Shown in pieces: positions 20,819-56,330 of a stretch of DNA of 57,206 nucleotides; positions within the stretch are counted from its first letter, which is position 1, and every line of letters starts with the position of its first letter. Position numbers and translations under genes: made by a program. The notes beneath the pieces are model-generated. The model had not been told where the DNA came from. It searched no databases and saw nothing but the letters and a program-made list of their open reading frames with translations. Origin of the DNA: Candidatus Yonathbacteria bacterium RIFCSPLOWO2_01_FULL_43_27 (lineage in GTDB: Bacteria; Patescibacteriota; Minisyncoccia; Phycocordibacterales; UBA1550); the NCBI GenBank assembly GCA_001823545.1, contig MHUV01000002.1, forward strand, positions 1 through 57,206, read 5' to 3'.

Positions 20819-22957
20819 TTACAATCCCAAAATCACAGGAATCACAATCGGGCGCTTTGCGGTTTCTTGGAAAAGGAAGCGTGCGACGGCGTCGGTGGTG
20901 TGGTCCTTGATGTAGTCAAAGTCAATCTGTTTTGAACCCGTAGAAAGCTCTTCGATAGAATTTTTTGCGATAACGCGTGCTTGGCGAAGAAGGTCTTGTG
21001 ATTCGCGAAGATAGACAAAACCACGTGAGATAATATCAGGGGACTTCGTAATTTTACCTGTAGTACGATCAATGGTGGCAATGATAACAAAGATACCGTC
21101 TTGTGAGAGCATTTGGCGATCGCGAAGCACCACCTCCTGAATACTGCCCACTGAGAATCCATCGACAAGCACCAGACCGCGTGGAGCAGTTTCTTTCAGT
21201 GCAACAATATTCTTTCCTTCGTTCTGAATCTCAATAACCATACTGTTGTCAGGAATAATGATGCGATCATCGGTCATTCCTGCCTCTTTCGCGATGTTGC
21301 CGTGTACGCGAAGGAGATAGTGGTATCCGTGAATAGGGATGAAGAAACGAGGTTTTACTTTCTGATGAATCCAGAGTGTTTCGTCGTGACATGCATGACC
21401 AGATGAGTGTACGTCAGCATTCTGGTAATGAATGATGGTTGCACCCTGTCGTGAGAGATTATCCTTGAGTTTCTGGACGCTCCTCTCGTTTCCAGGGATA
21501 ACGGAAGAAGAGAGGAGAATGGTATCACGTTTGTTAACTTTCAAGTATTTGTGGGTTTTGTTTGCTGCGCGCATGAGGGATGCAAACTCGTCTCCCTGTG
21601 CTCCTGTTACGAGCATAATAATGCGATCAGGTGGATAATTGTCCATTTCTTCGATAGGAATGAACGTCTCTTTCTTTGCGGTAAGGAACCCACTTTCACG
21701 CGCGATATCCACATTATTTTTCATACTGCGTCCATCAAGAACGATCTTTTTTCCGAGCACCTCTGCGGTGTCGATGATCTTGATAAGGCGCTCAAGAAGG
21801 GAAGCGAAGGTTGCTATAACGAGGCGTCCTTCAGTGTTGCGGATGATCGTTTCAATATTTTGAAGTACAATTCGTTCAGGGAATGAAAAGCCTGGGCGCT
21901 CTACGTTGGTTGAATCTGCCATAAGGAGAAGGTTTTGCGTATTCTCAATCCTTGCCCAATGATCTTCTTCGTCAAGTGTAGGCACACCATTATTGTGATC
22001 AAGCTTGAGGTCGCCTGTATGAATGATGTTACCGTACGGCGTTTCGATGATAGCCCCCATAGCATCAGGAATCGTGTGGGTCACCCCAAAGAACTCAACT
22101 TTGAAATCGCCAATCGTCGCACGCTCGTTTTTTTCTACCACGCGGATATCAAGTGCGGGAAGGTGAGGGAATTCATCTTGGCGCTTTTTGATGAGCAAGG
22201 TGCTGAGATTGCGTGAGTAAATAGGCGGGTTGCCGATTTTCTCCATAATGTAAGGGATGCTACCGATATGATCGAGGTGTCCGTGAGTAACGATAATCGC
22301 TTTTACTTTATGTTTGCGTTCCTCAAGATATTTGGTATTAGGAAGAATGTAGTCGACACCTGGGGTATTGTCCTCGCGGAACTGGAGGCCAGCGTCAATA
22401 ATAAGAATCGTATCTTTGTACTCAATACAGGTCATGTTGCGTCCGATTTCTTCAACGCCACCGAGTGGCACGATACGAATATCGCCGTCCTTAAGAGGGG
22501 GGATAATACTTTCGGTGTTTTGTGCAGGAAGTGGGATGCTCATACGTCGTGCATCAGCTTTCTCTCTTCCGGTAGTGTGCTTAACGCGTGAAGTGCTGCG
22601 AGGTATATTTTCTCCGTGGGAACCACGTGAACCGGGACGACTTCGAGAAGACATCCCTCCCTGAGGGCCCCTGCGCATGTCGCGCGGTTGACCGAGTGAT
22701 GCTCCACCACTTGGCGCCCTGTTGTCGTGTCGAGGGAACGAGCGATTATCCTGTGATGCAGGGAATGATGATCTCAATCCATGAGGTGCACTTGAAGACG
22801 CAGGTCGGTGACCTTCGTTTGTTGTTCCATATTGTGCCCTCTTTGATACCGCGCTTCGTGGTCCGCGCAGTGAGCGGTCTCGGCGGGGGAATCGACGTAC
22901 GTCATACCCGTCACCTTTAGGTCTCTGATTGTTTTGTCCTTCGTTGTTCGTCTCCAT
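20819..22957 (-). CDS. rnj: Ribonuclease J (metallo-beta-lactamase/beta-CASP) with a roughly 160-aa basic, RG/S-rich N-terminal extension
   Basis: IVPLGGVEEIGRNMTCIEYKDTILIIDAGLQF. HGHLDHIGSIPY. A beta-CASP region and a C-terminal domain. The N-terminus (NQRPKGDGYDVRRFPRRDRSLRGPRS...) is low complexity. Confidence 0.9.
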   Translation of the reverse strand: METNNEGQNNQRPKGDGYDVRRFPRRDRSLRGPRSAVSKRAQYGTTNEGHRPASSSAPHGLRSSFPASQDNRSFPRHDNRAPSGGASLGQPRDMRRGPQGGMSSRSRPGSRGSHGENIPRSTSRVKHTTGREKADARRMSIPLPAQNTESIIPPLKDGDIRIVPLGGVEEIGRNMTCIEYKDTILIIDAGLQFREDNTPGVDYILPNTKYLEERKHKVKAIIVTHGHLDHIGSIPYIMEKIGNPPIYSRNLSTLLIKKRQDEFPHLPALDIRVVEKNERATIGDFKVEFFGVTHTIPDAMGAIIETPYGNIIHTGDLKLDHNNGVPTLDEEDHWARIENTQNLLLMADSTNVERPGFSFPERIVLQNIETIIRNTEGRLVIATFASLLERLIKIIDTAEVLGKKIVLDGRSMKNNVDIARESGFLTAKKETFIPIEEMDNYPPDRIIMLVTGAQGDEFASLMRAANKTHKYLKVNKRDTILLSSSVIPGNERSVQKLKDNLSRQGATIIHYQNADVHSSGHACHDETLWIHQKVKPRFFIPIHGYHYLLRVHGNIAKEAGMTDDRIIIPDNSMVIEIQNEGKNIVALKETAPRGLVLVDGFSVGSIQEVVLRDRQMLSQDGIFVIIATIDRTTGKITKSPDIISRGFVYLRESQDLLRQARVIAKNSIEELSTGSKQIDFDYIKDHTTDAVARFLFQETAKRPIVIPVILGL

Positions 22958-32209: not shown

Positions 32210-32590
32210 ATGAATAATATTTTACGAAAAACAGGAGGGGTAGTGCTTGCGAGTGGGATACTTGCTCTACCGTTGTTATCAATAGGTGCGAGTGATTTGA
32301 TTGTTTGTGGGGGTCTCGATTGTGGTTTTTATGATTTAATTAAATTGGCAAACGCTATCGTTAAGTTTCTTTTTATTGACATAGCAATTCCTCTCGTGGC
32401 GTTGGGGATTATGTATGCGGGTGCACGACTCATTATTTTTCAAAATAAAGAAAAGGAAAAAACAGCAGCAAAAGAAATGCTCACGAATATTGGATATGGT
32501 TTCGCGCTTATGCTCGGGGTATTTGTACTCGTAAAGTTTGTCCTCGCTCAGTTCCTTTCAGAGGGATTCACTACATTCCTCCTTGAATAG
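32210..32590 (+). CDS. Putative VirB2/TrbC-like pilin paralog 1
   Basis: Signal-peptide-like N-terminus, a hydrophobic helix, a charged loop (QNKEKEKTAAKEM) and a second hydrophobic helix. It is paralogous to the next four genes. Confidence 0.45.
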   Translation: MNNILRKTGGVVLASGILALPLLSIGASDLIVCGGLDCGFYDLIKLANAIVKFLFIDIAIPLVALGIMYAGARLIIFQNKEKEKTAAKEMLTNIGYGFALMLGVFVLVKFVLAQFLSEGFTTFLLE

Positions 32591-32623
32591 GAGTAGGGGC
32601 AGGGTGTATACTATTTATATTAT

Positions 32624-32959
32624 ATGAAAAAAATATTAGTGTCGCTAATTACCTTTTGTGCCGTGAGCGTTCCTGGTTCATTCGTTTTTGCTGAGGTGCT
32701 CAAAAATCCTATTAAGTACAACACATTTTCAGCGTTTGTTGCAGCAGTAACCAAGACGGCAGTTCAGGTTCTCATGCCGTTTGTTGTACTCGCATTTATT
32801 TATGCTGGGTTTTTGTTTGTGAAAGCGCAAGGAAATGATAAGACGTTAGGCGAAGCCAAGAAAGCGATGACATGGAGCGTGGTCGGAGCCCTCATTCTTT
32901 TTGGTGCATGGGGTTTTGCAGAGATGATTGGCAAAACTGTTGAGACATTTACTAAGTAA
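32624..32959 (+). CDS. Putative VirB2/TrbC-like pilin paralog 2
   Basis: MKKILVSLITFCAVSVPGSFVFA signal peptide. Helix, then loop KAQGNDKTLGEAKKAM, then helix WSVVGALILFGAWGFAEMIGKTV. Confidence 0.45.
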   Translation: MKKILVSLITFCAVSVPGSFVFAEVLKNPIKYNTFSAFVAAVTKTAVQVLMPFVVLAFIYAGFLFVKAQGNDKTLGEAKKAMTWSVVGALILFGAWGFAEMIGKTVETFTK

Positions 32960-32973
32960 CCTCATTATACTTT

Positions 32974-33396
32974 ATGAACATTGCTAAAAAAGTTTTTTCG
33001 ATAAGTTTAGTTGGGGTTCCTTCCGTTACTCTTGCGGCAGTGAATATTGGTACGCTTGATTTTAAAGGTCTTGTTGCGTATGTTCTTGAGGATTTTATTA
33101 AACCGATAACGGTAGTTATTCTTTCTTTGGCGGTAGTATATTTTCTTTGGAATATTTTTAATATAATTCGTGCGAGTAAAAAAGGGGAGGAACTTGCTGA
33201 CCTTAAAAGTAAAGCGTTGTGGGGGGTTATCGCTATTTTTGTAATGGTATCAATGTGGGGGCTCGTGAGTATTTTGGTAAACACACTTGCGCCAGGGGCA
33301 GGTATCCCTGTGGGGGGTGGTCCGGCAAACATTAACTTTAGTGGTTTTGATAATGAGGGTACGAGTACAGGAGGGGTTAAAAATTTTTTGAAGTAA
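32974..33396 (+). CDS. Putative VirB2/TrbC-like pilin paralog 3 (Gly-rich C-terminal tail)
   Basis: Signal peptide. Helix, then loop RASKKGEELADLKSKA, then helix LWGVIAIFVMVSMWGLVSILVNTLAPG. Confidence 0.45.
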   Translation: MNIAKKVFSISLVGVPSVTLAAVNIGTLDFKGLVAYVLEDFIKPITVVILSLAVVYFLWNIFNIIRASKKGEELADLKSKALWGVIAIFVMVSMWGLVSILVNTLAPGAGIPVGGGPANINFSGFDNEGTSTGGVKNFLK

Positions 33397-33493
33397 CTAT
33401 ACGGAGTCCTTGCCCTTTCGGGGTGGGTTTTATATAATTACCTAAAGACAAAATTAACGTCTGAATAATTATTAGTTAATAGTTTATACATAT

Positions 33494-33838
33494 ATGAAAA
33501 AAGTTATTGCACTTGGTTTAGCGCTTGCTCCTTCGTTTGCTTTTGCGGCAATTACAGACGTAAATAGCATTCTTAGTTTTGCTATGTCGCTCTTGAACTC
33601 AGCTACGGTGCTTATTATGGCGGCAGCGGTAGTATGGTTTCTTATTGGCGTGTTCCAGTTTATCAAAGCTGCGGGTGACGCAGCAGGAAAATCTGAGGGA
33701 CGTAACAAAATAATCTACGGTATCGTTGGTCTTGCTGTGATGGCTTCGGTATATGGTCTCGTAAATATTTTGGTTAACACCGTAGGTCCTGACAATAGAC
33801 CGATTACCCCACCTTCACTCCCCATACTTCCTCGATAA
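33494..33838 (+). CDS. Putative VirB2/TrbC-like pilin paralog 4
   Basis: MKKVIALGLALAPSFAFA signal peptide. Helix, then loop KAAGDAAGKSEGRNK, then helix IIYGIVGLAVMASVYGLVNILVNTVGPD. Confidence 0.45.
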   Translation: MKKVIALGLALAPSFAFAAITDVNSILSFAMSLLNSATVLIMAAAVVWFLIGVFQFIKAAGDAAGKSEGRNKIIYGIVGLAVMASVYGLVNILVNTVGPDNRPITPPSLPILPR

Positions 33839-42375: not shown

Positions 42376-42783
42376 ATGACACAAAGAAAATTTCCTTGGT
42401 TTCTTGCGGTAGCTCTTTTTATTATTACAGGAGTTAATAGTGTGGCGAATTATTATTCATGGTATTGGACCATTCGGTGGTTTGATATGCCTATGCATTT
42501 TGCGGGTGGTGCGTGGCTTGCGGGTGTTACCATATGGTGGAAGTTTTTTTCAGGTAGGCAGGATATGTCTTCGGTGGCGCCCACCATTACACGTTTGATC
42601 GTGTGGGGCGTGGGAGGAGCTTTTGTTATAGGATTAGGTTGGGAAGTATACGAATCTGTTGTTTCTTTTTTAACACAGGGACATATTAATAATATACAAG
42701 ACACCATCAGCGACCTATTCTTGGATATGGCGGGAGGAACGCTCGTGGCAATCTTGTATAATATAAGAAAACGTTATGCTTAA
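42376..42783 (+). CDS. Hypothetical integral membrane protein (Trp-rich, four TM helices)
   Basis: MTQRKFPWFLAVALFIITGV... then WLAGVTIWW... then LIVWGVGGAFVIGLGW... The track ORF starts at 42313, but an upstream hairpin suggests a start at 42376. Confidence 0.45.
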   Translation: MTQRKFPWFLAVALFIITGVNSVANYYSWYWTIRWFDMPMHFAGGAWLAGVTIWWKFFSGRQDMSSVAPTITRLIVWGVGGAFVIGLGWEVYESVVSFLTQGHINNIQDTISDLFLDMAGGTLVAILYNIRKRYA

Positions 42784-44131
42784 ACTTGGCTTTTACGGTG
42801 CTGCAGGGGAGGTGACTGGTTCAAATCATCTTTTAGAAGGTGCGGGTGCAAAAATTTTGATTGATTGTGGATTTTTTCAAGGGGTGAAGGTGTGTGATGA
42901 TAAAAATAGTGATCCTTTCCCCTACGACCCAAAAACAATTGATGCACTCTTTGTTACCCATGCGCACCTCGATCACATTGGGCGTATCCCTAAGCTCGTC
43001 TTGGATGGATTCAAAGGTAAAATATATTCTACGCCACCAACGAAACAAATTGCGCAGCTTATGCTCGAAGATACGTTGCGGGTTATTGCGCGTGAGGCAA
43101 AAGCGGACAACCACGAGCCACTCTATCTCGAAGAATCCGTACGGCAAACAATGTCCCGCTGGGAGACCGTGCCGTATGATCAAGAAGTTGTTATCGGGGA
43201 ACTCCATATACGATTTCGTGATGCAGGGCATATCCTCGGATCAGCGATGCTTGAGATAGAACATAATGGTAAAAAACTCGCATACTCAGGCGACCTCGGT
43301 AATTCTCCTGCGCCACTTCTTATGGATACAAAGTTACTTTCTGGTATTGATTATCTTGTCATGGAGGCGGTGTACGGTGATCGTACACACGAAGATCGCG
43401 AAAAACGCGTACATTTATTGGAAGAAATCATCAAAGAAACAATTGCTCGCGGAGGTACACTGATGATCCCTGCGTTTTCCATAGAGCGCACGCAGGATCT
43501 ACTATACGAATTGAATGAGCTTGTGGAAGGTCAAAAAATTCCAGAAATTCCTGTTTTTGTGGATTCACCACTCGCGATTAGAGTAACAGAGGTGTATCGA
43601 AAAAATGGTTCGTACTTTAATAAAGAAACCAAGGACGATATTAAAGGAGGGGATGATATTTTCAAGTTTCCCCGACTTCGTTTTACGGAACGCACTGAGG
43701 ATTCTATTGCAATCAAAGATGTCCCTGCTCCTAAAATAGTTATTGCGGGGTCCGGTATGTCAAACGGAGGCCGTATTCTCCATCATGAGCGTAATTATTT
43801 GGGTGACCCCAAAAGCATCTTGCTCCTTATTGGCTATCAGGCAGTCGGCACGATGGGACGTGCACTCCAAGAAGGGGTAACCTCAGTGCGAATTTTTGAT
43901 GAAGATGTTTCTGTACGCGCAAAAATAGCGGTAATTAACGGATATTCTGCGCACAAGGATACGAATGCACTCCTTGAATTTGTGGGAACAATGCAGGACA
44001 CGGTGAAAAAAGTGTTTGTGGTGCACGCTGAACCTGGCGCTGCGTTGTTTTTTGCCCAGCGTGTTCGCGACTACCTTGCAATCGATACGCGTATTCCAAA
44101 AGCAGGTGAGGTGGTGGAGATTGATATGTAA
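42776..44131 (+). CDS. MBL-fold metallo-hydrolase with a beta-CASP RNA-metabolising domain (CPSF73/RNase J-like)
   Basis: ILIDCGFFQG, THAHLDHIGRIPKL (HxHxDH), a beta-CASP region and an RMMBL-like C-terminus. Confidence 0.85.
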   Translation: MLKLGFYGAAGEVTGSNHLLEGAGAKILIDCGFFQGVKVCDDKNSDPFPYDPKTIDALFVTHAHLDHIGRIPKLVLDGFKGKIYSTPPTKQIAQLMLEDTLRVIAREAKADNHEPLYLEESVRQTMSRWETVPYDQEVVIGELHIRFRDAGHILGSAMLEIEHNGKKLAYSGDLGNSPAPLLMDTKLLSGIDYLVMEAVYGDRTHEDREKRVHLLEEIIKETIARGGTLMIPAFSIERTQDLLYELNELVEGQKIPEIPVFVDSPLAIRVTEVYRKNGSYFNKETKDDIKGGDDIFKFPRLRFTERTEDSIAIKDVPAPKIVIAGSGMSNGGRILHHERNYLGDPKSILLLIGYQAVGTMGRALQEGVTSVRIFDEDVSVRAKIAVINGYSAHKDTNALLEFVGTMQDTVKKVFVVHAEPGAALFFAQRVRDYLAIDTRIPKAGEVVEIDM

Positions 44132-45415: not shown

Positions 45416-46378
45416 ATGAAAAAAGAACATATGGTATTGGTTGCAACGCTTGGTTTGGCACTGGTGGCAATCCCTGCTTTTGCAGATGATAGAATCAATT
45501 CGCTTCCTACGACAACGATAGGAACTTCAACAAACCACGTACAGGCTCCCGTTGTTAAACAAAAGAAATTGCAAGAGGTAAAACGTGAAATCGAAGAAGC
45601 GCGCAAAGAAACACGAAGCGAGGTGAAGGATATTCGTGAAAAAGCGCTCAAAGAGACCCACGAGGCACGCGAAGGGCTCCATGATGAAGTAAAAACACTT
45701 CGTCAGGGTGTGGCAAGTTCTACGGCAACGGGGACTGCTCCAATGTTCAAAAAACTCATCGAAGAGCGTCGAGAGCATTTTAAAAATCAACTCGAAGAAA
45801 GAAAGGATGAAGTAAAGAAAAAGATTGAAATTGAAAAACTCCGCCTTAACGAAAAACTTAAAACAATAAAGGACGAGCGAAAGAAACAAACGGTGCAGAA
45901 AGTTAATGCTGAGATTCAGGTAATCAACACACGAAAGCTCGAGCATTATTCAAATGTTCTCAATCAGATCGAGGAAGTATTGAAGAAGGTGGGAACTCGT
46001 GTGGATAATGCAGCAGTACGTGGGCTTAACGTAAGTAACGTACGAACAAATATCACTGCGGTAGAAACTGCAATTGCTACAGCACGTGCATCTATCGTAA
46101 CTCAGTCTTCAAAGGTCTACACGGTTACCGTTACCACCGAAGGAAACCTCAAGAATGATACAGGGGTAACTCGCAAAGCACTCCAGAAAGATCTCTCTGT
46201 GGTACAGGATTTGGTAAAGGCTGCCCATGATGCACTTCGCAAAACTGCGGTAAGTTTGGCGCAGGTACCTCGTATTAATGATACGAACGGCTCAGCAACA
46301 TCAACAGCTACCTCGATAGGACAGACCGAAACTACTACTACCGCAACATCAACAGCGACCTCGACTGCAACTAATTAA
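45416..46378 (+). CDS. Secreted coiled-coil protein with a C-terminal (T-A-T-S)n repeat tail
   Basis: Signal peptide MKKEHMVLVATLGLALVAIPAFA. A long K/E-rich heptad-like region. The tail is TSTATSIGQTETTTTATSTATSTATN. Confidence 0.6.
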   Translation: MKKEHMVLVATLGLALVAIPAFADDRINSLPTTTIGTSTNHVQAPVVKQKKLQEVKREIEEARKETRSEVKDIREKALKETHEAREGLHDEVKTLRQGVASSTATGTAPMFKKLIEERREHFKNQLEERKDEVKKKIEIEKLRLNEKLKTIKDERKKQTVQKVNAEIQVINTRKLEHYSNVLNQIEEVLKKVGTRVDNAAVRGLNVSNVRTNITAVETAIATARASIVTQSSKVYTVTVTTEGNLKNDTGVTRKALQKDLSVVQDLVKAAHDALRKTAVSLAQVPRINDTNGSATSTATSIGQTETTTTATSTATSTATN

Positions 46379-47823: not shown

Positions 47824-47990
47824 GGAACCTGCGGAATGCTATATAATATATGGCATTTTGAATTAAAAGTCAATGGTAGCGTTTGTCGTTGATGGAAGGA
47901 GGAAGGGAGTAGAAAAATGTGTTTGAGGCGAGTTTTTTGATTGTTTTAGGATGGTGAATGAAAATAGAATAAATATTATGCTTTAAAAAC

Positions 47991-48102
47991 TTGACTTTTT
48001 CGTAATATTTGTTATATTGTATGTATGTGAGTGCGCGAGGGCAACCTCGGGCGATTCAACAAACGAATGTCTGCAAAAACCTCCGCGCAAGCGGAGTTTT
48101 TT
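47991..48102 (+). ncRNA. Candidate small RNA: a sigma-70-like promoter followed about 75 nt later by an intrinsic terminator, divergent from infC
   Basis: TTGACT (47991-47996), a 16-nt spacer, then TATATT (48013-48018). Then GUGAGUGCGCGAGGGCAACCUCGGGCG... ends in CTCCGC-gcaa-GCGGAG plus T6 (48081-48102). No ORF follows. Confidence 0.4.
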
Positions 48103-48254
48103 GTTTCTGTTTTTTCTTGGTATGTTTTGCTATACTCTTAATAAAGTTCCTGTGTTCTTTTGACTAGCGACTGCACTCACATATTTAGACATTTGTTGGA
48201 GTTCGCACTCGCTAGTCAAAAGAGTACGGGAAAAATATTTACATAAAGAATTAT

Positions 48255-48293
48255 AAAAAATTGCGCACAGATATCTGTGCGCAATTATTTTTT
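48255..48293. terminator. Perfect 28-bp palindrome flanked by an A-run and a T-run (bidirectional terminator)
   Basis: AAAAAATTGCGCACAGAT/ATCTGTGCGCAATTATTTTTT. Confidence 0.75.
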
Positions 48294-48414
48294 AATACGT
48301 GTACATTAAAATTATTTTTTAATTAATAAAAAATATTGAGAAATAAAATTAATTAATTTTTTATTTTTTTATTTTGTAAAAATATTTTAATAAATTTTTT
48401 TTACAAAAAAAAGT

Positions 48415-48423
48415 TATCCACAG
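48415..48423 (+). promoter_or_regulatory. Single consensus DnaA box inside a tract of about 90% AT
   Basis: TTATCCACA is an exact match to the DnaA-box consensus. The surrounding tract at 48300-48480 is almost entirely A/T. Confidence 0.3.
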
Positions 48424-48643
48424 TTTTTTTACAAAAAAGTATTGTAAATGATTTTCATATGCGTGATAATAATAGTAGATCAGTACACAGAGTATGAAAA
48501 ATATTTTCATACACGAATGATCCAATGATCAAACATGACAACACATTTTATTTTAATATATGTTGTCGGTCGAAGATTATTGTAAAAAATAATTTGCATA
48601 CAAATGTACATACATACGTGTATGTACATACGTACATAAAACA

Positions 48644-48715
48644 ATGGCAGCAAAAAAGAAGGCAAAGAAGGCAGCAAAGAAAGTAGCAAAGAAAGCAGCT
48701 AAGAAGCGCAAATAG
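48644..48715 (+). CDS. 23-codon micro-ORF encoding a Lys/Ala-only peptide (MAAKKKAKKAAKKVAKKAAKKRK), followed by a terminator
   Basis: Read directly from the sequence. A hairpin (AACCGCCC-cag-GGCGGTT plus T-run) lies at 48743-48765. There is no obvious Shine-Dalgarno. It could instead be the 5' region of an RNA. Confidence 0.3.
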   Translation: MAAKKKAKKAAKKVAKKAAKKRK

Positions 48716-48786
48716 TTTTTCAAGCACATAGTGTGCAGCAATAACCGCCCCAGGGCGGTTTTTGTTTTTTCCAGAGAAGCCTTACG

Positions 48787-51594
48787 TTGCTTGTGAAATA
48801 TGGTATACTTTATACATATATGGCACTATGGGGAGCACAACATCATGAAAGAGGGGAGCAAGGTAACTCTTTAGGGAATACAAAAAAATTTGAAACTCCC
48901 CACGAGGAGATTGCATATTTACGCGCACGTATCGAAGAACAGGAACAGGTGATGACACAAAATGGTCATACTATTGAACGACCGCATGTCGCGAAAGAAA
49001 AGATTTTAGAATATCGCGAGGAGGTTCCTGAAAAAATATTAAAGGAAACATATCAGATTAAGGCACAGGAAATAGAAGAGCGTGTACTTGGATTAGATAA
49101 AGAGCGTTCAGAAATGATTGATGAACTCGTGCGCATTATGATGGAACGTGGTATTAAAAATACACTCACCATACTTGAAAAGTTGCACAACCCTCGCCTC
49201 GAAGACGACTTCCATCGTTTTCTCGTGCAGTTTCTTTCAGACACATCGTTCACTTCAATAGTAAAAGAACGCGTACTCTTTCGTGCGCTTCGTATGCGTT
49301 TGTACGAGATCACCTTACCGCCGATTAATCAAAAAGGTGAAGCAAGAAGTTTTGCAGACCTCGTAACAGGAATGGAACAGTTTTATGCAGGAATGCTTTC
49401 CGTAGAGGCGACATCTTCTGTGTGGGGCGAAGTAAAAAATTACTTTACTCTTGAGCTCGCACTTTCAAATATTTCAAGCGAAGTGGTGTTTTATGCGGCA
49501 GTGCCTTTTGAATACAGCGACTTATTTGAAAAGCAAATACTTTCTGCATATCCAGATGCAAAAATTCGTGAGCATAAAGAAGACTACAATCCATTTAATG
49601 AAGCGGGAGTAACGCTTGCTTCTGTTGCTGAACCAGTAGGAAATCAGGTTTTTGCCATGAAGACGTTTGAAAAGTTTTCCCAGGATCCGTTAAATACACT
49701 TCTTGGTGCCTTTAGTAAGATAGAGCACGCAGGAGAGGGTGTTGCGATACAGTTTGTTATTGAGCCACAAGGAAAGGCGTTTAATGATGTCTATAAAAAT
49801 GCGAGAGAGGAAATTAAAAAAGGTATACCGGTAAAAAAAGCGCTTGAGAGTACCACGATGCGTTTTGCTACGGGTTTTGCCTCGGTAGCCAAAGAACTCA
49901 TGTTTGGTATTAAGAAGAATGAAGAACATATTGACCAAGAAGCGGTTGAGAGTATTACAGAAAAAATCTCTTCACCGGTAGTGGATACCAATATTCGCAT
50001 TGTGGTGTCGGCGGGGGATGAAGCACGCGCGACAGCACTTTTGAATGAACTTGAATCCACGTTTAATCAATTCAATAAACCACACGCTAACGGTATTAAA
50101 TGGCGTCGCCTTACGACGGGTGCAGAACTTGCAAAAACTATTTCTCAGTACTCGTTCCGTATATTTGAGAAGAATCAAAGTTTTCCGTTGAATCTTAAAG
50201 AGCTTACAACGATATTCCATTTCCCCGTAACAGAAGTATCCTCTCCTGAGCTCAAAGAATCCCGCGCGGGAGTTGCGCCAGCACCGCTCACACTTTCTTC
50301 TGAGGGTGTCGTACTTGGTGTAAATCGTTATCATAATAAAGAAACACAGGTGCATATGGGGCGCGAGGATCGCATGCGTCATTTATATGTCATTGGACAG
50401 ACGGGAACTGGGAAGACGAGCATTTTGAAAAATATGATTGTGCAGGATATCCGCAATGGTGACGGCGTCTGTTTCATTGATCCGCATGGTTCTGACATAC
50501 AGGATATTCTTGCCCTTGTGCCACCTGAACGTGCAGATGACGTCATTTATTTTGATCCTGCTGATACAGCGCGTCCTATGGGGCTCAATATGCTTGAGTA
50601 TGATAGAGAGAAGCCCGAACAAAAAACGTTTGTGGTGAACGAGATGATGAATATCTTCAATCAACTCTTTGATATGAAGGTTGGTGGTGGGCCAATGTTT
50701 GATCAGTATTTTAGAAATGCAGCAGCGCTCGTGATGGAGCATCCAGAATCTGGCTCTACGCTTCTCGAGATTACCCGTGTACTTGCGGATAAGGATTTTC
50801 GTGCAATGAAGCTTGCGCACTGTAAAAATCCTATCATCGCACAGTTTTGGACAAGCGCAGAAAAAACTACCGGAGATCAAGGGCTCGCAAATTTTGTGCC
50901 CTACATCTCGAGTAAGTTTGATAACTTTATTTCCAACGATATTATGCGTCCGATTGTGCTCCAGCAGAACTCGACGCTTAATTTTAGAAAGATTATGGAC
51001 GAGAAAAAGATTCTCCTCGTCAATCTTTCAAAAGGACGCTTGGGTGATATCAACGCCAATTTCATCGGGCTTTTGCTCGTAGGGAAAATAATGATGGCAG
51101 CTCTTTCGCGGGTAGATATGTTTGGTACGGGTACCACGCCAAAGGATTTTTATTTGTATATCGACGAATTCCAAAATGTGACGACGCCTTCTATCGCAAC
51201 TATTCTTTCCGAAGCGCGCAAGTATCGTCTCTCGCTCACCGTAGCGCACCAATTTATTGCACAACTTACCGATGAAATAAAAAATGCGGTATTTGGTAAC
51301 GTGGGTTCGATGGCGGTGTTCCGTGTTGGTCCCGATGATGCAAAATATCTCGAGAGTAAGTTTGCACCTACCTTTAGCGCTGAGGATATAACACGCCTCG
51401 ATAACTATCAAGCGTATCTGAGTCTTTTAATTAACGGTCAGCCAGGGAAGTCGTTCAATATTGCTACGTTGTCACCAGAAAAGGGTGACGCGTCTTCCGC
51501 AGAGCACATAAAAGAACTCTCTCGTTCGAAGTATGGACTTTCTCGAGAGATAGTTGAAGCGGAAATTTTTTCGCGTTTTGAGGCAGGGAAGTGA
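48787..51594 (+). CDS. VirD4/TraG-like (type IV coupling protein family) ATPase. It is soluble, with a roughly 500-aa N-terminal extension and no TM anchor.
   Basis: Walker A GQTGTGKT, then FIDPHGSD (compare the v.DPKGE motif). DVIYFDPADTARPMGLNMLE (compare the NPL motif). Walker B LYIDEFQNV. C-terminal EARKYRLSLTVAHQFIAQL resembles the TraG-D_C pattern RKyg..l....Q...QL. The start could be 48820 or 48952 (AGGTG before MTQNGH). Confidence 0.65.
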   Translation: MLVKYGILYTYMALWGAQHHERGEQGNSLGNTKKFETPHEEIAYLRARIEEQEQVMTQNGHTIERPHVAKEKILEYREEVPEKILKETYQIKAQEIEERVLGLDKERSEMIDELVRIMMERGIKNTLTILEKLHNPRLEDDFHRFLVQFLSDTSFTSIVKERVLFRALRMRLYEITLPPINQKGEARSFADLVTGMEQFYAGMLSVEATSSVWGEVKNYFTLELALSNISSEVVFYAAVPFEYSDLFEKQILSAYPDAKIREHKEDYNPFNEAGVTLASVAEPVGNQVFAMKTFEKFSQDPLNTLLGAFSKIEHAGEGVAIQFVIEPQGKAFNDVYKNAREEIKKGIPVKKALESTTMRFATGFASVAKELMFGIKKNEEHIDQEAVESITEKISSPVVDTNIRIVVSAGDEARATALLNELESTFNQFNKPHANGIKWRRLTTGAELAKTISQYSFRIFEKNQSFPLNLKELTTIFHFPVTEVSSPELKESRAGVAPAPLTLSSEGVVLGVNRYHNKETQVHMGREDRMRHLYVIGQTGTGKTSILKNMIVQDIRNGDGVCFIDPHGSDIQDILALVPPERADDVIYFDPADTARPMGLNMLEYDREKPEQKTFVVNEMMNIFNQLFDMKVGGGPMFDQYFRNAAALVMEHPESGSTLLEITRVLADKDFRAMKLAHCKNPIIAQFWTSAEKTTGDQGLANFVPYISSKFDNFISNDIMRPIVLQQNSTLNFRKIMDEKKILLVNLSKGRLGDINANFIGLLLVGKIMMAALSRVDMFGTGTTPKDFYLYIDEFQNVTTPSIATILSEARKYRLSLTVAHQFIAQLTDEIKNAVFGNVGSMAVFRVGPDDAKYLESKFAPTFSAEDITRLDNYQAYLSLLINGQPGKSFNIATLSPEKGDASSAEHIKELSRSKYGLSREIVEAEIFSRFEAGK

Positions 51595-53608: not shown

Positions 53609-54046
53609 TTAATTTGTTCCCGTTGATGTTGTAGTCGATGTTGCCGTTCCTCCTGTCTCGATAGTTTCAGTGATTGTGCTGGTACTTGCGGATGTTGCCA
53701 CCTTGGGTATCAGTATCATTTCTATTACTTCACTACCCGTGCGTCCGTAGCGGTCCCGTGCTTCAAGGGTCATTATATTATACCCCGAGGATAGGAGCAA
53801 TTGTTCGCTAAAATTTCCATCGAGATCAATGGTTGTGGTGGCGTTGTTGATAAAAAAGAGGTTTCCTCTGAGTACCCTTCCGGCAATAGTTATCATTGGT
53901 GTAGTGGTCGCGTATCCGGTTTGCGGGGTCGTGATATCAATACGTGGTCTGCGCAAGACGTCTTTTAATGCAAAGAATGAATACCCTACTACCATAAGTA
54001 TGCCGAGTATGATAAGTATTCTAATAATAAGATTTCGGGAGAGCAT
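53609..54046 (-). CDS. Membrane-anchored hypothetical protein with a Thr/Ser-rich C-terminal tail
   Basis: An N-terminal TM helix (IIRILIILGILMVVGYSFFAL), a soluble domain, and the tail TSASTSTITETIETGGTATSTTTSTGTN. Confidence 0.5.
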   Translation of the reverse strand: MLSRNLIIRILIILGILMVVGYSFFALKDVLRRPRIDITTPQTGYATTTPMITIAGRVLRGNLFFINNATTTIDLDGNFSEQLLLSSGYNIMTLEARDRYGRTGSEVIEMILIPKVATSASTSTITETIETGGTATSTTTSTGTN

Positions 54047-54065: not shown

Positions 54066-56330
54066 TTAGATCCCGTCCGTCTCTTCCCCTGCTTTTATGA
54101 GAACTTGGCGTGGTTTTGCGCCGTCACCTGGTCCAATGATGTTGCGTTCCTCAAGCATATCCATAAGGCGTGCAGCGCGTGCATAACCGACTTTGAGGCG
54201 CCGTTGGAGATAGGAAGTTGATGCCTTACCTGCTTCAATGACAATCATTCGTGCATCTTCATATAAATCATCGTCATCGCCACCGTTATTGTCATCAAGC
54301 GTTGCTTCAAAAAGAGGGTCGCGATCGGTACTAATAGATCCTTGCGAGAAATTAATCTCGTCAGGAAGCTTGTCAGTTTCGAGGCCGGCAAGATATTTCA
54401 CAACAGATTTCACTTCCCCTTCGGACATAAAGGCAGATTGAATACGGGTCGGCTTCGACATTTCTCCCGATATATAGAGCATATCGCCGGCACCGAGAAG
54501 TTTCTCTGCACCCGAGGCGTCGAGAATGGTGCGTGAGTCTATCTGTGAGGCAACCTGAAGGGCAACACGGGCCGGGACGTTGGCTTTGATGAGACCGGTG
54601 ATGACATTCACCGAAGGACGCTGGGTTGAGAGAATGAGGTGAATACCGACAGCGCGACTCATTTGTGCGAGACGAACAATAGCACTTTCGAGTTCGCGAG
54701 GATAGCTCTGCATAATATCAGCAAGCTCGTCCAATATGATGACGATGTAGGGCATGCGCTCGGGTATCGTGACATCCATATCTGCACCCGCACTTGTTTT
54801 GTTGTTAGTTGTTTGTTGTTGGTTGTTTGTTTTCTTGAGTGCCGGTTCGAGGACATTCTTGTGGTATGAACTAATGTCGCGCACGGACTCGGCTTCGAGA
54901 ATATTGTAGCGACGATCCATTTCCTTTGCTGCCCACTTGAGCGCAAGGATTGCTTTTTTTGCATCCGTGATGACCGGCGTGAGGAGGTGAGGAATTTTGT
55001 TGTAGAGGGTCAGCTCGACACGCTTAGGGTCGATCATAATGAAGCGAAGATTTTCAGGTGCGTTCCTGTAAAGGAGGGAGTTTACGATGGCGTGAATCGT
55101 TACCGACTTACCTGAACCCGTAGCGCCTGCGATGAGCACGTGAGGCATCTTGGCGAGGTCCGCATAGTACAGTTTCCCAGAGACACCACGACCAAGAGCA
55201 AGAAGGAGTGGCTTTGGAGAATCGCGGTATTCTTCAGACGAAAAGAGGGTCCTCAAACCGACGACTGTTTTCGTGGAATTAGGAACTTCGATACCGACGA
55301 GTGATTGACCAGGGATCGGTGCTTCAATACGAATTGGGTGTGCGGCGAGTGCGTACGAGAGCTCGCTCTGCAGTCCTACGATGCGTGAAAGTTTTACTCC
55401 CTCGGCGGGTTTGAGTGCGTATCTTGTTACCGACGGACCGATGGAAACTTCGTCCATCTCGACCGTGATCCCGTACTGTCCGAGGGTGCGTTTGATGATG
55501 TTCGCGTTTGCTTTGATGTCACCAACACCGGGCTTTCCGCGATCGCCTTCAAGAAGTGAAAGTGGGGGAGGTGTGTAGCTTGTTCCAGAGAGTTCTTTAA
55601 AAGAAATTCCACCACCAAGTCCTTCAGTTTTTTTATCACTAATTTTTTGAACTGCCTGCGCAAGTTTTGATTGTTTTGGGTCCTCTTCTTTTGTCGGAAG
55701 GGGGAGGGTTGGGGCTTCCTCAGGAATGTCGATAATAACTTCCTCGTCTTCCTCTGCTCCTTCGTCATCCGCGCGCTTTCTCCAAAAGAGAAGTGAAGAA
55801 AAATTTGGTCGCGTATTGAACATGACGATGAACGAGATAAGGAGAAATGCGAGAAGGAGGATTACCGTAATGTAGGCATCAAAGAGTGCAATGAGGGGAG
55901 TCGAGATTGCCCATCCAATGATCCCCGCAGTGTCGTTGCCGGAGAAAATGTTAATGAGTCCAAGTGAAGAAAAAAGAAATAGAAATGCACCGACGGCAGA
56001 GGTGGTGGCGATGCTGGGACGCGTGCTACGAAAGAGAGAAATACTGAGAAGAAAAAAGAGGGTAGGGAGGATAAAATATCCGACACCAAAGAGATAGTTG
56101 AGCCCACCATAGAGTGTCTGTCCAAAGATCCCTGCCTTCCCAAAAGGAGCAGAAGAAAGTGCGATACCAAGTACTAAAAAGATAATAGCGAATACGGTAT
56201 GACGAATCTCATCTGCGAGCCCATTCATAAATGAGAGTGGTTTAAATGAAGTATCTTTTTTTGCTTCCCGTGGTTCTTTAACCGTTTGTTTTTTTGAGGA
56301 GCTCCCTTTCTTTCCTTGAGTGTTTGCCAT
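54066..56330 (-). CDS. ftsK: DNA translocase FtsK/SpoIIIE
   Basis: N-terminal TM helices, a linker, Walker A GATGSGKS, Walker B IVIILDELADI, and the C-terminal gamma winged helix (LYEDARMIVIEAGKASTSYLQRRLKVGYARAARLMDMLE). Confidence 0.95.
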   Translation of the reverse strand: MANTQGKKGSSSKKQTVKEPREAKKDTSFKPLSFMNGLADEIRHTVFAIIFLVLGIALSSAPFGKAGIFGQTLYGGLNYLFGVGYFILPTLFFLLSISLFRSTRPSIATTSAVGAFLFLFSSLGLINIFSGNDTAGIIGWAISTPLIALFDAYITVILLLAFLLISFIVMFNTRPNFSSLLFWRKRADDEGAEEDEEVIIDIPEEAPTLPLPTKEEDPKQSKLAQAVQKISDKKTEGLGGGISFKELSGTSYTPPPLSLLEGDRGKPGVGDIKANANIIKRTLGQYGITVEMDEVSIGPSVTRYALKPAEGVKLSRIVGLQSELSYALAAHPIRIEAPIPGQSLVGIEVPNSTKTVVGLRTLFSSEEYRDSPKPLLLALGRGVSGKLYYADLAKMPHVLIAGATGSGKSVTIHAIVNSLLYRNAPENLRFIMIDPKRVELTLYNKIPHLLTPVITDAKKAILALKWAAKEMDRRYNILEAESVRDISSYHKNVLEPALKKTNNQQQTTNNKTSAGADMDVTIPERMPYIVIILDELADIMQSYPRELESAIVRLAQMSRAVGIHLILSTQRPSVNVITGLIKANVPARVALQVASQIDSRTILDASGAEKLLGAGDMLYISGEMSKPTRIQSAFMSEGEVKSVVKYLAGLETDKLPDEINFSQGSISTDRDPLFEATLDDNNGGDDDDLYEDARMIVIEAGKASTSYLQRRLKVGYARAARLMDMLEERNIIGPGDGAKPRQVLIKAGEETDGI

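Follow-up and report, generated by a model that had tools for sequence, protein, structure and literature searches.

Introduction

What does an ATPase with the motifs of a type IV coupling protein (T4CP) do when it has no membrane anchor and is encoded among housekeeping genes? This question is raised by a gene of Candidatus Yonathbacteria bacterium RIFCSPLOWO2_01_FULL_43_27, which lies on a 57,206-nucleotide stretch of DNA (contig MHUV01000002.1 of assembly GCA_001823545.1; the whole stretch is designated as the window) and encodes a protein of 924 amino acids (aa), hereafter the window ATPase (48820–51594, forward strand, with a TGA stop codon at 51592–51594). A large part of bacterial diversity belongs to the Patescibacteria, which live as epibionts and whose chromosomal type IV secretion system (T4SS) is essential in the one species tested. 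The text of a survey of 3,035 Patescibacterial genomes (Quinonero-Coronel et al. 2025, PMC12102498) counts 5,713 VirD4-type T4CP homologues in 2,918 genomes, only 148 of these homologues lying near virB4, reports VirB4 in 2,417 genomes and relaxases in 103, and places the Patescibacterial T4SS in the monoderm MPF-FATA class. The window ATPase very probably belongs to the T4CP set counted in that survey.

In this study, we characterized the window ATPase computationally and found that it joins a small helical partner, a domain with the predicted fold of the VirB4 N-terminal domain and a T4CP-like motor in one chain. The family itself is known, as it has been catalogued (DUF8128, phrog_5156) and counted, whereas the combination of a VirB4-type N-domain and a T4CP-like motor with a partner, fused in some members and encoded separately in others, appears to be undescribed. 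Searches of the available text of PMC12102498 and PMC10633639 found neither the VirB4-like domain nor the partner nor the two architectures of the family described, and a literature search found no mention of the names 'DUF8128' and 'PF26449'. The VirB4-like domain, the partner protein, and the anchored and anchor-less forms provide handles for studying the near-universal 'T4CP homologue' of Patescibacteria.

A predicted VirB4-type domain in the N-terminal half

The open reading frame (ORF) of the window ATPase is a real gene, far beyond chance, since 2,223 homologues were retrieved from a database at E ≤ 1e-5, and the best 120 of them are 55–92% identical to it over 80–99% of the length. PF26449 (DUF8128) is precomputed on all of these 120 proteins, and the corresponding region of the window ATPase aligns throughout with the homologues that bear it. 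The N-terminal region, in which the preliminary description of this locus had recognised no motif, is already catalogued as Pfam family DUF8128; our own search of the N-terminal 480 aa found no Pfam match with a Pfam version that lacks PF26449. Residues are numbered here on the 924-aa form unless stated otherwise.

The DUF8128 domain (aa 150–470; 49267–50229) is modelled as an alpha/beta domain and ends in the conserved motif LNLKELTTIFHFP. A separate AlphaFold2 model of the domain was confident (pLDDT 87.3, pTM 0.87), and when it was submitted to Foldseek, the top 12 hits were all chains of TrwK, the VirB4 of R388 (7o42, 8rtd), with E values of 1e-6 to 2e-3 and nothing else significant. Independently of Foldseek, a fold comparison listed neither the VirB4 entry comprising only the C-terminal domain nor any other RecA-like ATPase, so that it must be the N-terminal domain of VirB4 that DUF8128 matches. 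Judging from these models, aa 150–470 are predicted to adopt the fold of the VirB4 N-terminal domain, at a sequence identity of 8% to TrwK. For the full-length model, 489 residues could be aligned to TrwK, and the VirB4-type N-terminal and C-terminal ATPase folds are both present in the predicted structure, so that the window ATPase shares with VirB4 the order of an alpha/beta N-domain and then a RecA-like motor that has a helical bundle.

The DUF8128 domain is preceded by a helical extension (aa 22–139; 48883–49236), which is modelled as helices with a pLDDT of ~80 and carries the conserved NPxxxDDFHxxLV as NPRLEDDFHRFLVQ at aa 124–137. No transmembrane (TM) helix was found before the Walker A motif, where the highest 19-residue Kyte–Doolittle mean is 1.23; the sole hydrophobic peak (1.75) is at aa 744, inside the ATPase core. 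A TM helix concealed by a misassigned start codon had also been considered, but the reading frame is closed by a stop 14 codons before the first start codon of the ORF (TTG 48787), which leaves no room for an anchor hidden on the 5′ side, and the homologues start later. The lack of a membrane anchor that the preliminary description reported is thus confirmed.

Two architectures and a fused partner protein

When the N-terminal 477 aa were compared with 1.84 billion cluster representatives, 962 clusters were matched, and among them only the closer clusters matched residues 1–150. Shorter relatives of ~800 aa have a single N-terminal TM helix followed directly by DUF8128. Among 257 full-length family members, 113 are TM-anchored, with a median length of 820 aa and no DDFH motif in any of them, and 144 have no TM segment, with a median length of 918 aa and the DDFH motif in 132.

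The missing module was found next door. At each of the TM-type loci inspected by eye (L005, L006, L007, L085, L086, and L089), a small same-strand ORF bearing the motif ends just before the ATPase gene, and at L088 the upstream partner was flagged by a hidden Markov model (HMM) search alone, which makes seven of seven genome and contig loci. An HMM built from the first 150 residues of fused proteins matches ORFs upstream of TM-type genes, and in an independent metagenome sample it detected the partner in 23 of the 35 TM-type loci with enough upstream DNA; a second pass with a partner HMM detected one in 29 loci of the metagenome set. Conversely, an HMM of 25 free-standing partners (ORFs of 115–174 aa plus one 70-aa fragment) matches aa 22–139 of the window ATPase over positions 6–124 of 135 with 39.8 bits. 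These seeds were picked with the fused-protein HMM, which introduces some circularity, yet the reciprocal match spans the whole module. In addition, clustering of the neighbours at 87 TM-type loci returned the partner as the main recurrent neighbour. Neither the module nor the free-standing partners matched a Pfam family, and a database search for the partner found unannotated hypothetical proteins only.

Taken together, the reciprocal HMM matches and the upstream partner ORFs show that the window ATPase corresponds to the partner and a DUF8128-ATPase in one anchor-less chain. Patescibacteria have two mutually exclusive architectures, namely, a ~135-aa partner with a ~820-aa single-pass TM-DUF8128-ATPase, and a fused anchor-less protein of ~920 aa; the direction of the change, fusion or fission, is a matter of inference.

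Two further observations were made at TM-type loci. A second small helical ORF of ~169 aa, which looks unrelated to the partner, lies directly upstream of the TM-type gene in 12 loci (e.g., L095 3347–3853) and may be an alternative partner. At one locus only (L007 12539–14041), the TM-type ATPase gene is followed by genes for a 500-aa PilM_2 protein (type IV pilus assembly) and small membrane proteins.

The motor domain and its closest relatives

Residues 497–885 (50308–51474) form a P-loop ATPase domain that belongs to the VirB4/VirD4 clade and contains the series of Walker A, DPxG, Walker B, and R...Q motifs that is found in VirD4, TrwB, and TraD. In the Walker A motif GQTGTGKT (aa 526–533; 50395–50418), neither subfamily varies at G526, T528, G529, G531, or K532, at least 90% of the sequences have Q527 and T530, and position 533 is T or S. 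It is followed by FIDPHGSD (aa 552–559) and by the Walker B motif FYLYIDEF (aa 777–784; 51148–51171). A TraG-D_C-type stretch, SEARKYRLSLTVAHQ (aa 797–811; 51208–51252; Pfam TraG-D_C match), aligns with KGRKAGLRVVAGLQ of TrwB and includes the conserved R800, which would serve as an arginine finger, and Q811. Nothing suggests a dead enzyme, given that K532, D782, E783, R800, and Q811 are invariant in both subfamilies. An insertion in the domain (aa 601–727; 50620–51000) consists of helices only, as assigned by DSSP on the AlphaFold2 model; 351 residues of the ATPase model align to TrwB, and by its position the insertion probably occupies the place of the TrwB all-alpha domain.

Three Pfam T4CP models passed narrowly: T4SS-DNA_transf (PF02534; 31.3 bits, cut-off 20.1), TraG-D_C (PF12696; 24.5 bits, cut-off 22), and TrwB_AAD_bind (PF10412; 22.2 bits, cut-off 20.5). 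DUF87 (PF01935; 20.2 bits, cut-off 23.2), FtsK_SpoIIIE (PF01580; 14.7 bits, cut-off 24, covering Walker A only), and the generic Pfam AAA models stayed below their cut-offs. In the NCBIfam ranking, TraD and VirD4-type models were at the top, yet far under the family cut-offs (SXT_TraD, 53.4 against 366; TOL_TraD, 38.9 against 648; F-type TraD, 14.3 against 521; and the VirD4-like CD1115 model, 46.4 against 250, covering residues 521–848 in 935-aa numbering). The NCBIfam models of VirB4 (VirB4_plasma, 16.1 bits against 590), CedB/CedD, and EccC scored much lower, and the Pfam models of VirB4, i.e., AAA_10, CagE_TrbE_VirB, and TraC_F_IV, had no match to the window ATPase at E ≤ 1. Likewise, an HMM of the ATPase family did not match F TraC, pCF10 PrgJ, or a Bacillus AAA_10 protein. 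A sequence search of the PDB found TrwB only (E 7e-4), to which the family profile added DotL. In structure comparison, the motor scored 28.8 with the VirB4 C-terminal domain (4ag5), 27.9 with the DndH C-domain, 26.7 with TrwB, 25.8 with HerA, 23.1 with DotL, 20.6 with Cag-beta, 17.8 with TcpA, and 17.4 with FtsK.

The motor is a member of the VirB4/VirD4 branch of the FtsK–HerA superfamily, and by sequence it appears closest to the coupling proteins (VirD4/TraD/TrwB), with the profiles leaning toward VirD4. The earlier assignment of the C-terminal half to T4CP-like ATPases thus holds. A HerA-like ATPase, the other possibility that had been named, did not find support: besides the low DUF87 score, the model has no beta-barrel (the HAS barrel of HerA) and shows a helical extension followed by an alpha/beta domain instead. 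Unlike FtsK, the window ATPase has no 4TM, alpha, or gamma domain.

The motor also bears a likeness to ATPases of anti-phage defence systems, and we considered whether the window ATPase is a defence component of the MADS mad8, DndH, or HerA type. The PADLOC mad8 profile matches it with an E value of 2.3e-17; however, the match covers the motor domain only, the likeness being limited to the common ATPase fold, and no other MADS, Dnd, or Sir2/NurA-type partner is encoded near the gene. Its spread as a core gene with fixed synteny, described in the next section, is also unlike that of a defence island, and we regard this explanation as very improbable.

A core gene of the Patescibacterial chromosome

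The window comes from a housekeeping region of a Paceibacteria-like Patescibacterial chromosome, and in it we identified secY, gyrA, clpB, argS, metG, tmk, rpsF, ssb, ndk, beta-CASP RNase genes, rplT-rpmI-infC, efp, recA, and a complete ftsK. The named homologues of the window ATPase in database searches were all from Patescibacteria, the best being from Yonathbacteria and Nomurabacteria. The usual place of the fused-type gene is secY-adk-map-[gene]-ndk, at the end of the ribosomal-protein/secY/adk cluster. The order map-[gene]-ndk was found in annotated homologue contigs and in 27 loci of a marker survey; in one annotated homologue contig, the gene comes after rplB and before ndk. The efp-recA-ftsK side, as in the window, was seen in a few loci (L047, L050, L052, and L059). 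Synteny of the gene is kept in dozens of genomes at 45–92% identity, and the gene belongs to the vertically inherited chromosomal core of Paceibacteria-type genomes.

These results bear on a further proposal of the preliminary description, that the gene lies in an integrated element. T4CP-type motifs would be expected of a canonical conjugative coupling protein on an integrated conjugative or mobilisable element, and the AT-rich, terminator-dense spacer upstream of the gene (see below) could pass as the boundary of an element. However, a scan of the window ORFs at 3–57 kb, those near the gene included, turned up no integrase, relaxase, or VirB4, and no integrase was seen beside the family members examined. 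The GC content across the gene (0.40–0.45) is like that elsewhere in the window, the synteny of the gene is shared by dozens of genomes, and IMG/VR contains only nine distant relatives. We consider such an origin scarcely credible.

A complete FtsK (4TM, alpha, motor, and gamma) is encoded at 54066–56330 (reverse strand), 2.5 kb downstream of the gene and next to recA and efp, so that two distinct ATPases of the FtsK–HerA superfamily are encoded in the window. On account of this full FtsK, we rejected the window ATPase as an FtsK replacement.

The VirB2-like pilin genes reported earlier at 32–34 kb, whose products had been suggested as possible partners of the window ATPase, were also found. 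Four tandem ORFs at 32210–33838 (forward strand; 126, 111, 140, and 114 aa) match Pfam T4SS_pilin (PF18895); two of the scores exceed the cut-off and two fall short of it. The ORFs are flanked by a solute-binding protein gene and by tmk/argS, and their surroundings contain no further T4SS gene.

Homologues on plasmids and phages

A tblastn search of 72,556 plasmids with the motor returned 350 records with up to 33% identity, 287 of which are on plasmids typed as non-mobilizable. The best matches were a 395-aa stand-alone motor from Sulfitobacter and a 708-aa protein from Bradyrhizobium, which has another N-terminus and is encoded beside CHAT/TPR genes. The DUF8128 HMM matched neither of these proteobacterial relatives, which have the motor alone in common with the window ATPase.

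The DUF8128-type N-domain was found on 18 Bacillaceae plasmids. The 24.7-kb Bacillus subtilis plasmid NZ_CP032854 (L185 6032–14355) encodes an 886-aa DUF8128-ATPase that scores 65 bits with the DUF8128 HMM and 229 bits with the whole-family HMM. Its gene lies directly upstream of those for Replic_Relax, TcpC, TcpE, and an 848-aa AAA_10 (VirB4-like) protein. The 913-aa homologue on a second B. subtilis plasmid, NZ_OX419581 (L186 12001–21850), heads genes in the same order, TcpD included, although the N-domains of the two proteins are only 32% identical. Both are full-length homologues with the same two domains as the window ATPase and, like it, without a TM helix; they differ in having no partner module and in their place at the head of Replic_Relax/TcpC/TcpE/VirB4-like modules, and their motors are ~27% identical to that of the window ATPase. 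The Bacillus DUF8128-ATPase gene holds the coupling-protein position of a Tcp/ICEBs1-type conjugation module. Both plasmids are typed as 'non-mobilizable' despite this compact module, and they may be overlooked conjugative plasmids with a DUF8128-type coupling protein.

The same clusters help to weigh a third explanation, in which the window ATPase is a divergent VirB4 paralogue with a part in assembly, such as pulling VirB2-like pilins out of the membrane for a pilus. The predicted fold of the N-domain matches VirB4 alone, four T4SS_pilin paralogues are encoded in the window, and the TM-anchored relatives, with a TM helix, an N-terminal domain, and a motor, resemble known VirB3–VirB4 fusions. 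Against this, T4CP models match the window ATPase and VirB4 sequence models do not; the Bacillus clusters hold a bona fide AAA_10 VirB4 in addition to the DUF8128-ATPase, which occupies the T4CP position beside the relaxase-like gene; and in the loci examined DUF8128-ATPase genes were never beside VirB3, VirB6, or VirB8-like genes. The window ATPase moreover differs from VirB4 in its extra fused partner module. According to PMC12102498, which also mentions VirB3–VirB4 fusions, Patescibacteria already have a canonical VirB4. A VirB4 paralogue is therefore improbable in our judgement.

In phages, 55 records, 48 of them from Bacillus phages, match the window ATPase from aa 224 to ~907. Its match to phrog_5156 has an E value of 5.6e-81 and spans DUF8128 and the motor (protein 206–919; profile 76–807 of 824). 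Of the two phage proteins that were checked, ORF23 of phage D6E (L183 5746–8004) scores 52 bits with the DUF8128 HMM, and neither it nor gp15 of phage Carmen17 (L184 5908–8046) has a TM helix; unlike the window ATPase, these phage-encoded proteins have no partner module. The phrog_5156 proteins, including gp156 of Bacillus phage G as well as D6E ORF23 and Carmen17 gp15, come from lysogeny or replication regions of Bacillus/Geobacillus phages.

Proposed role

We propose, as its most likely role, that the window ATPase would be a coupling-type second ATPase of the Patescibacterial T4SS, with a substrate that would probably be non-DNA or non-relaxase, and our analysis gives this proposal a little short of an even chance. 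It is based on the coupling slot occupied by the Bacillus homologues and on the derivation of the Patescibacterial T4SS from monoderm conjugation systems. Classical conjugation in Patescibacteria is unlikely because relaxases are reported in only 103 of 3,035 genomes (PMC12102498).

The comparison with VirD4/TrwB/TraD shows likeness in the motif series, in the three Pfam models passed, probably in the site of the helical insertion, and in the relaxase-like gene that adjoins the Bacillus homologues. The window ATPase differs from these T4CPs in several respects: an N-terminal TM domain, which has two helices in TrwB, is absent here, and the sister proteins have one TM helix; a 320-aa VirB4-like domain precedes the motor; and linkage to a relaxase or T4SS was found only in the Bacillus plasmid homologues and at none of the Patescibacterial loci examined. 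According to the text of PMC7431656, TM-less T4CPs form a recognised class (class iii of Llosa and Alkorta), exemplified by TraJ of pIP501, which is paired with the membrane protein TraI. The window ATPase is likewise a coupling-type ATPase without an anchor of its own, and a partner could in principle bring it to the membrane; however, its conserved partner is a soluble helical protein that is fused to it, and no membrane partner was identified. It also carries the VirB4-like domain, which TraJ of pIP501 is not known to have.

In the mechanism that we envisage, the window ATPase would form a ring, probably a hexamer, like TrwB, VirB4, HerA, and FtsK, and ATP would be hydrolysed at the subunit interfaces by the Walker A and B motifs of one subunit together with R800 of its neighbour in trans. 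The N-terminal domain of VirB4 contacts VirB3 and VirB8, and in the window ATPase the VirB4-like domain would similarly provide a platform for docking and oligomerisation on the cytoplasmic side of the membrane. A built-in adaptor or regulator function would fall to the fused partner module, and the assembled ring would recruit a substrate to the Patescibacterial T4SS or energise export through it.

Several results weigh against a role in the T4SS. The affinity to canonical T4CPs is marginal, as the Pfam scores are just 2–11 bits over the cut-offs, and structure does not tell VirB4 from VirD4 for the motor domain. With hhalign, the probability was 42% for F TraD and 11% for F TraC, and these comparisons by HMM and hhalign, which included pCF10 PcfC and PrgJ, are too weak to place the motor firmly with either VirD4 or VirB4; all structures used are predictions. 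VirB4, VirB6, VirB3, pilin, and relaxase genes were absent beside the fused-type gene in four annotated contexts and in the marker survey, and no T4SS gene was among the recurrent neighbours of the 87 TM-type loci. The pilin genes of the window are 15 kb away, beyond argS, metG, and other housekeeping genes, and the anchor-less form has no evident route to the membrane. Homologues with DUF8128 and the motor occur in Bacillus phages (phrog_5156) with no annotated T4SS nearby. In the text of PMC12102498, more genomes have T4CP homologues (2,918) than VirB4 (2,417). In S. epibionticum, the t4cp homologue is dispensable, whereas other T4SS genes are essential (PMC12102498; Wang et al. 2023, PMC10633639).

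Many of these points would also fit a motor that was exapted from a conjugative coupling-type ATPase and now works independently of the T4SS, in housekeeping, as a cytoplasmic or membrane-peripheral translocase or remodeller with a small partner and a substrate that would be DNA, as for FtsK, HerA, and TrwB, or protein. This explanation gains from the lack of T4SS linkage in any Patescibacterial locus examined, the fixed place of the gene at the end of the ribosomal-protein/secY/adk/map cluster, the loss of the anchor in a large clade, and the phage homologues mentioned above. The closest stand-alone motors are, moreover, mostly on non-mobilizable plasmids, some of them beside CHAT/TPR genes, and the text of PMC12102498 states that exaptation of t4cp 'cannot be ruled out', t4cp being both non-essential and more widespread than VirB4. 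On the other side, the predicted VirB4-like N-domain speaks for a membrane machine, as does the TM anchor in the sister architecture, the Bacillus homologues are inside conjugation clusters, the small helical protein is the only conserved partner, and with a complete FtsK 2.5 kb away, chromosome segregation is already covered. We consider an exapted motor a serious rival, although less likely than a role in the T4SS.

A more speculative reading concerns the evolution of the family. The DUF8128-ATPases may represent a third, hitherto undescribed branch of T4SS ATPases, which combines a VirB4 N-domain with a coupling-like motor and survives as an intermediate between VirB4 and VirD4. In Patescibacteria, domestication would have turned it into a core gene of almost all genomes, served by a dedicated small partner that in the window ATPase is fused and no longer tied to the membrane, and it would drive a process other than conjugation, for example the export of protein or other cargo to the host cell or a T4SS-independent nucleic-acid transaction. 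We put this forward tentatively and think it rather unlikely. The union of a VirB4-type N-domain with a T4CP-like motor in a coupling slot bears on the origin of VirD4 from VirB4-like ancestors.

Start codon and upstream region

The ORF that was present in the ORF list (48787–51594, forward strand) opens with TTG 48787 and would encode 935 aa. Alignment places the start of close homologues at the residue matching M12 ('MALWG...'), the homologue P0001 being 924 aa long and 92% identical to the window ATPase, and the stretch between the in-frame stop and TTG 48787 is the stem of a terminator hairpin. Given these features, TTG 48787 is probably not the true start, and we took ATG 48820, which yields the 924-aa form. 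An intrinsic-terminator-like hairpin with a T-run, detected by a terminator scan at 48743–48775 (forward strand), closes the upstream mini-ORF unit and sets the ATPase gene apart. On reading the sequence, we noticed an extended −10-like element, TGgTATACT (48801–48809, forward strand), which ends 10 nt upstream of ATG 48820; a consensus promoter scan did not call it, as its −35 is poor. No Shine–Dalgarno sequence is visible before ATG 48820, and since the −10-like element is so close, the mRNA leader would be very short or absent.

The AT-rich spacer directly upstream of the gene, which the preliminary description had pointed out, is evident from the GC content of 0.328 for 48001–49000 compared with ~0.43 in the rest of the window. 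The spacer proper (47824–48786; GC ~0.33) contains seven terminator-like hairpins, compared with an expectation of 0.6, as well as a good promoter-like site (TTGACT-16-TATATT with TG, at 47991–48018) and a long inverted repeat at ~48160–48222. Such an arrangement would fit two or three short, separately transcribed units, which could be small RNAs; an Rfam search of the spacer found nothing credible. Just before the ATPase gene, a 23-codon ORF (48644–48715, forward strand) encodes MAAKKKAKKAAKKVAKKAAKKRK, which is nearly all Lys/Ala, and is followed by a strong hairpin and T-run. This mini-ORF was absent from 89 other related loci, and its position next to the ATPase gene is not conserved; it could encode a tiny basic protein or be a chance ORF.

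Other genes of the window

Two RNases of the beta-CASP/metallo-beta-lactamase type are encoded at 20819–22957 (reverse strand) and 42776–44131 (forward strand). One is a full RNase J with the C-terminal domain, and the other is a shorter Beta-Casp/RMMBL protein, which is a conserved neighbour of the ATPase gene in related genomes (ndk - beta-CASP - LDcluster4).

Two genes, at 45416–46378 (forward strand) and 53609–54046 (reverse strand), encode predicted envelope proteins that have hydrophobic segments at the N-terminus and belong to no Pfam family. Their tails are similar and rich in Thr/Ser/Ala, ending in ...TATSTATSTATN and ...TATSTTTSTGTN, respectively, and may constitute a common C-terminal sorting or glycosylation signal.

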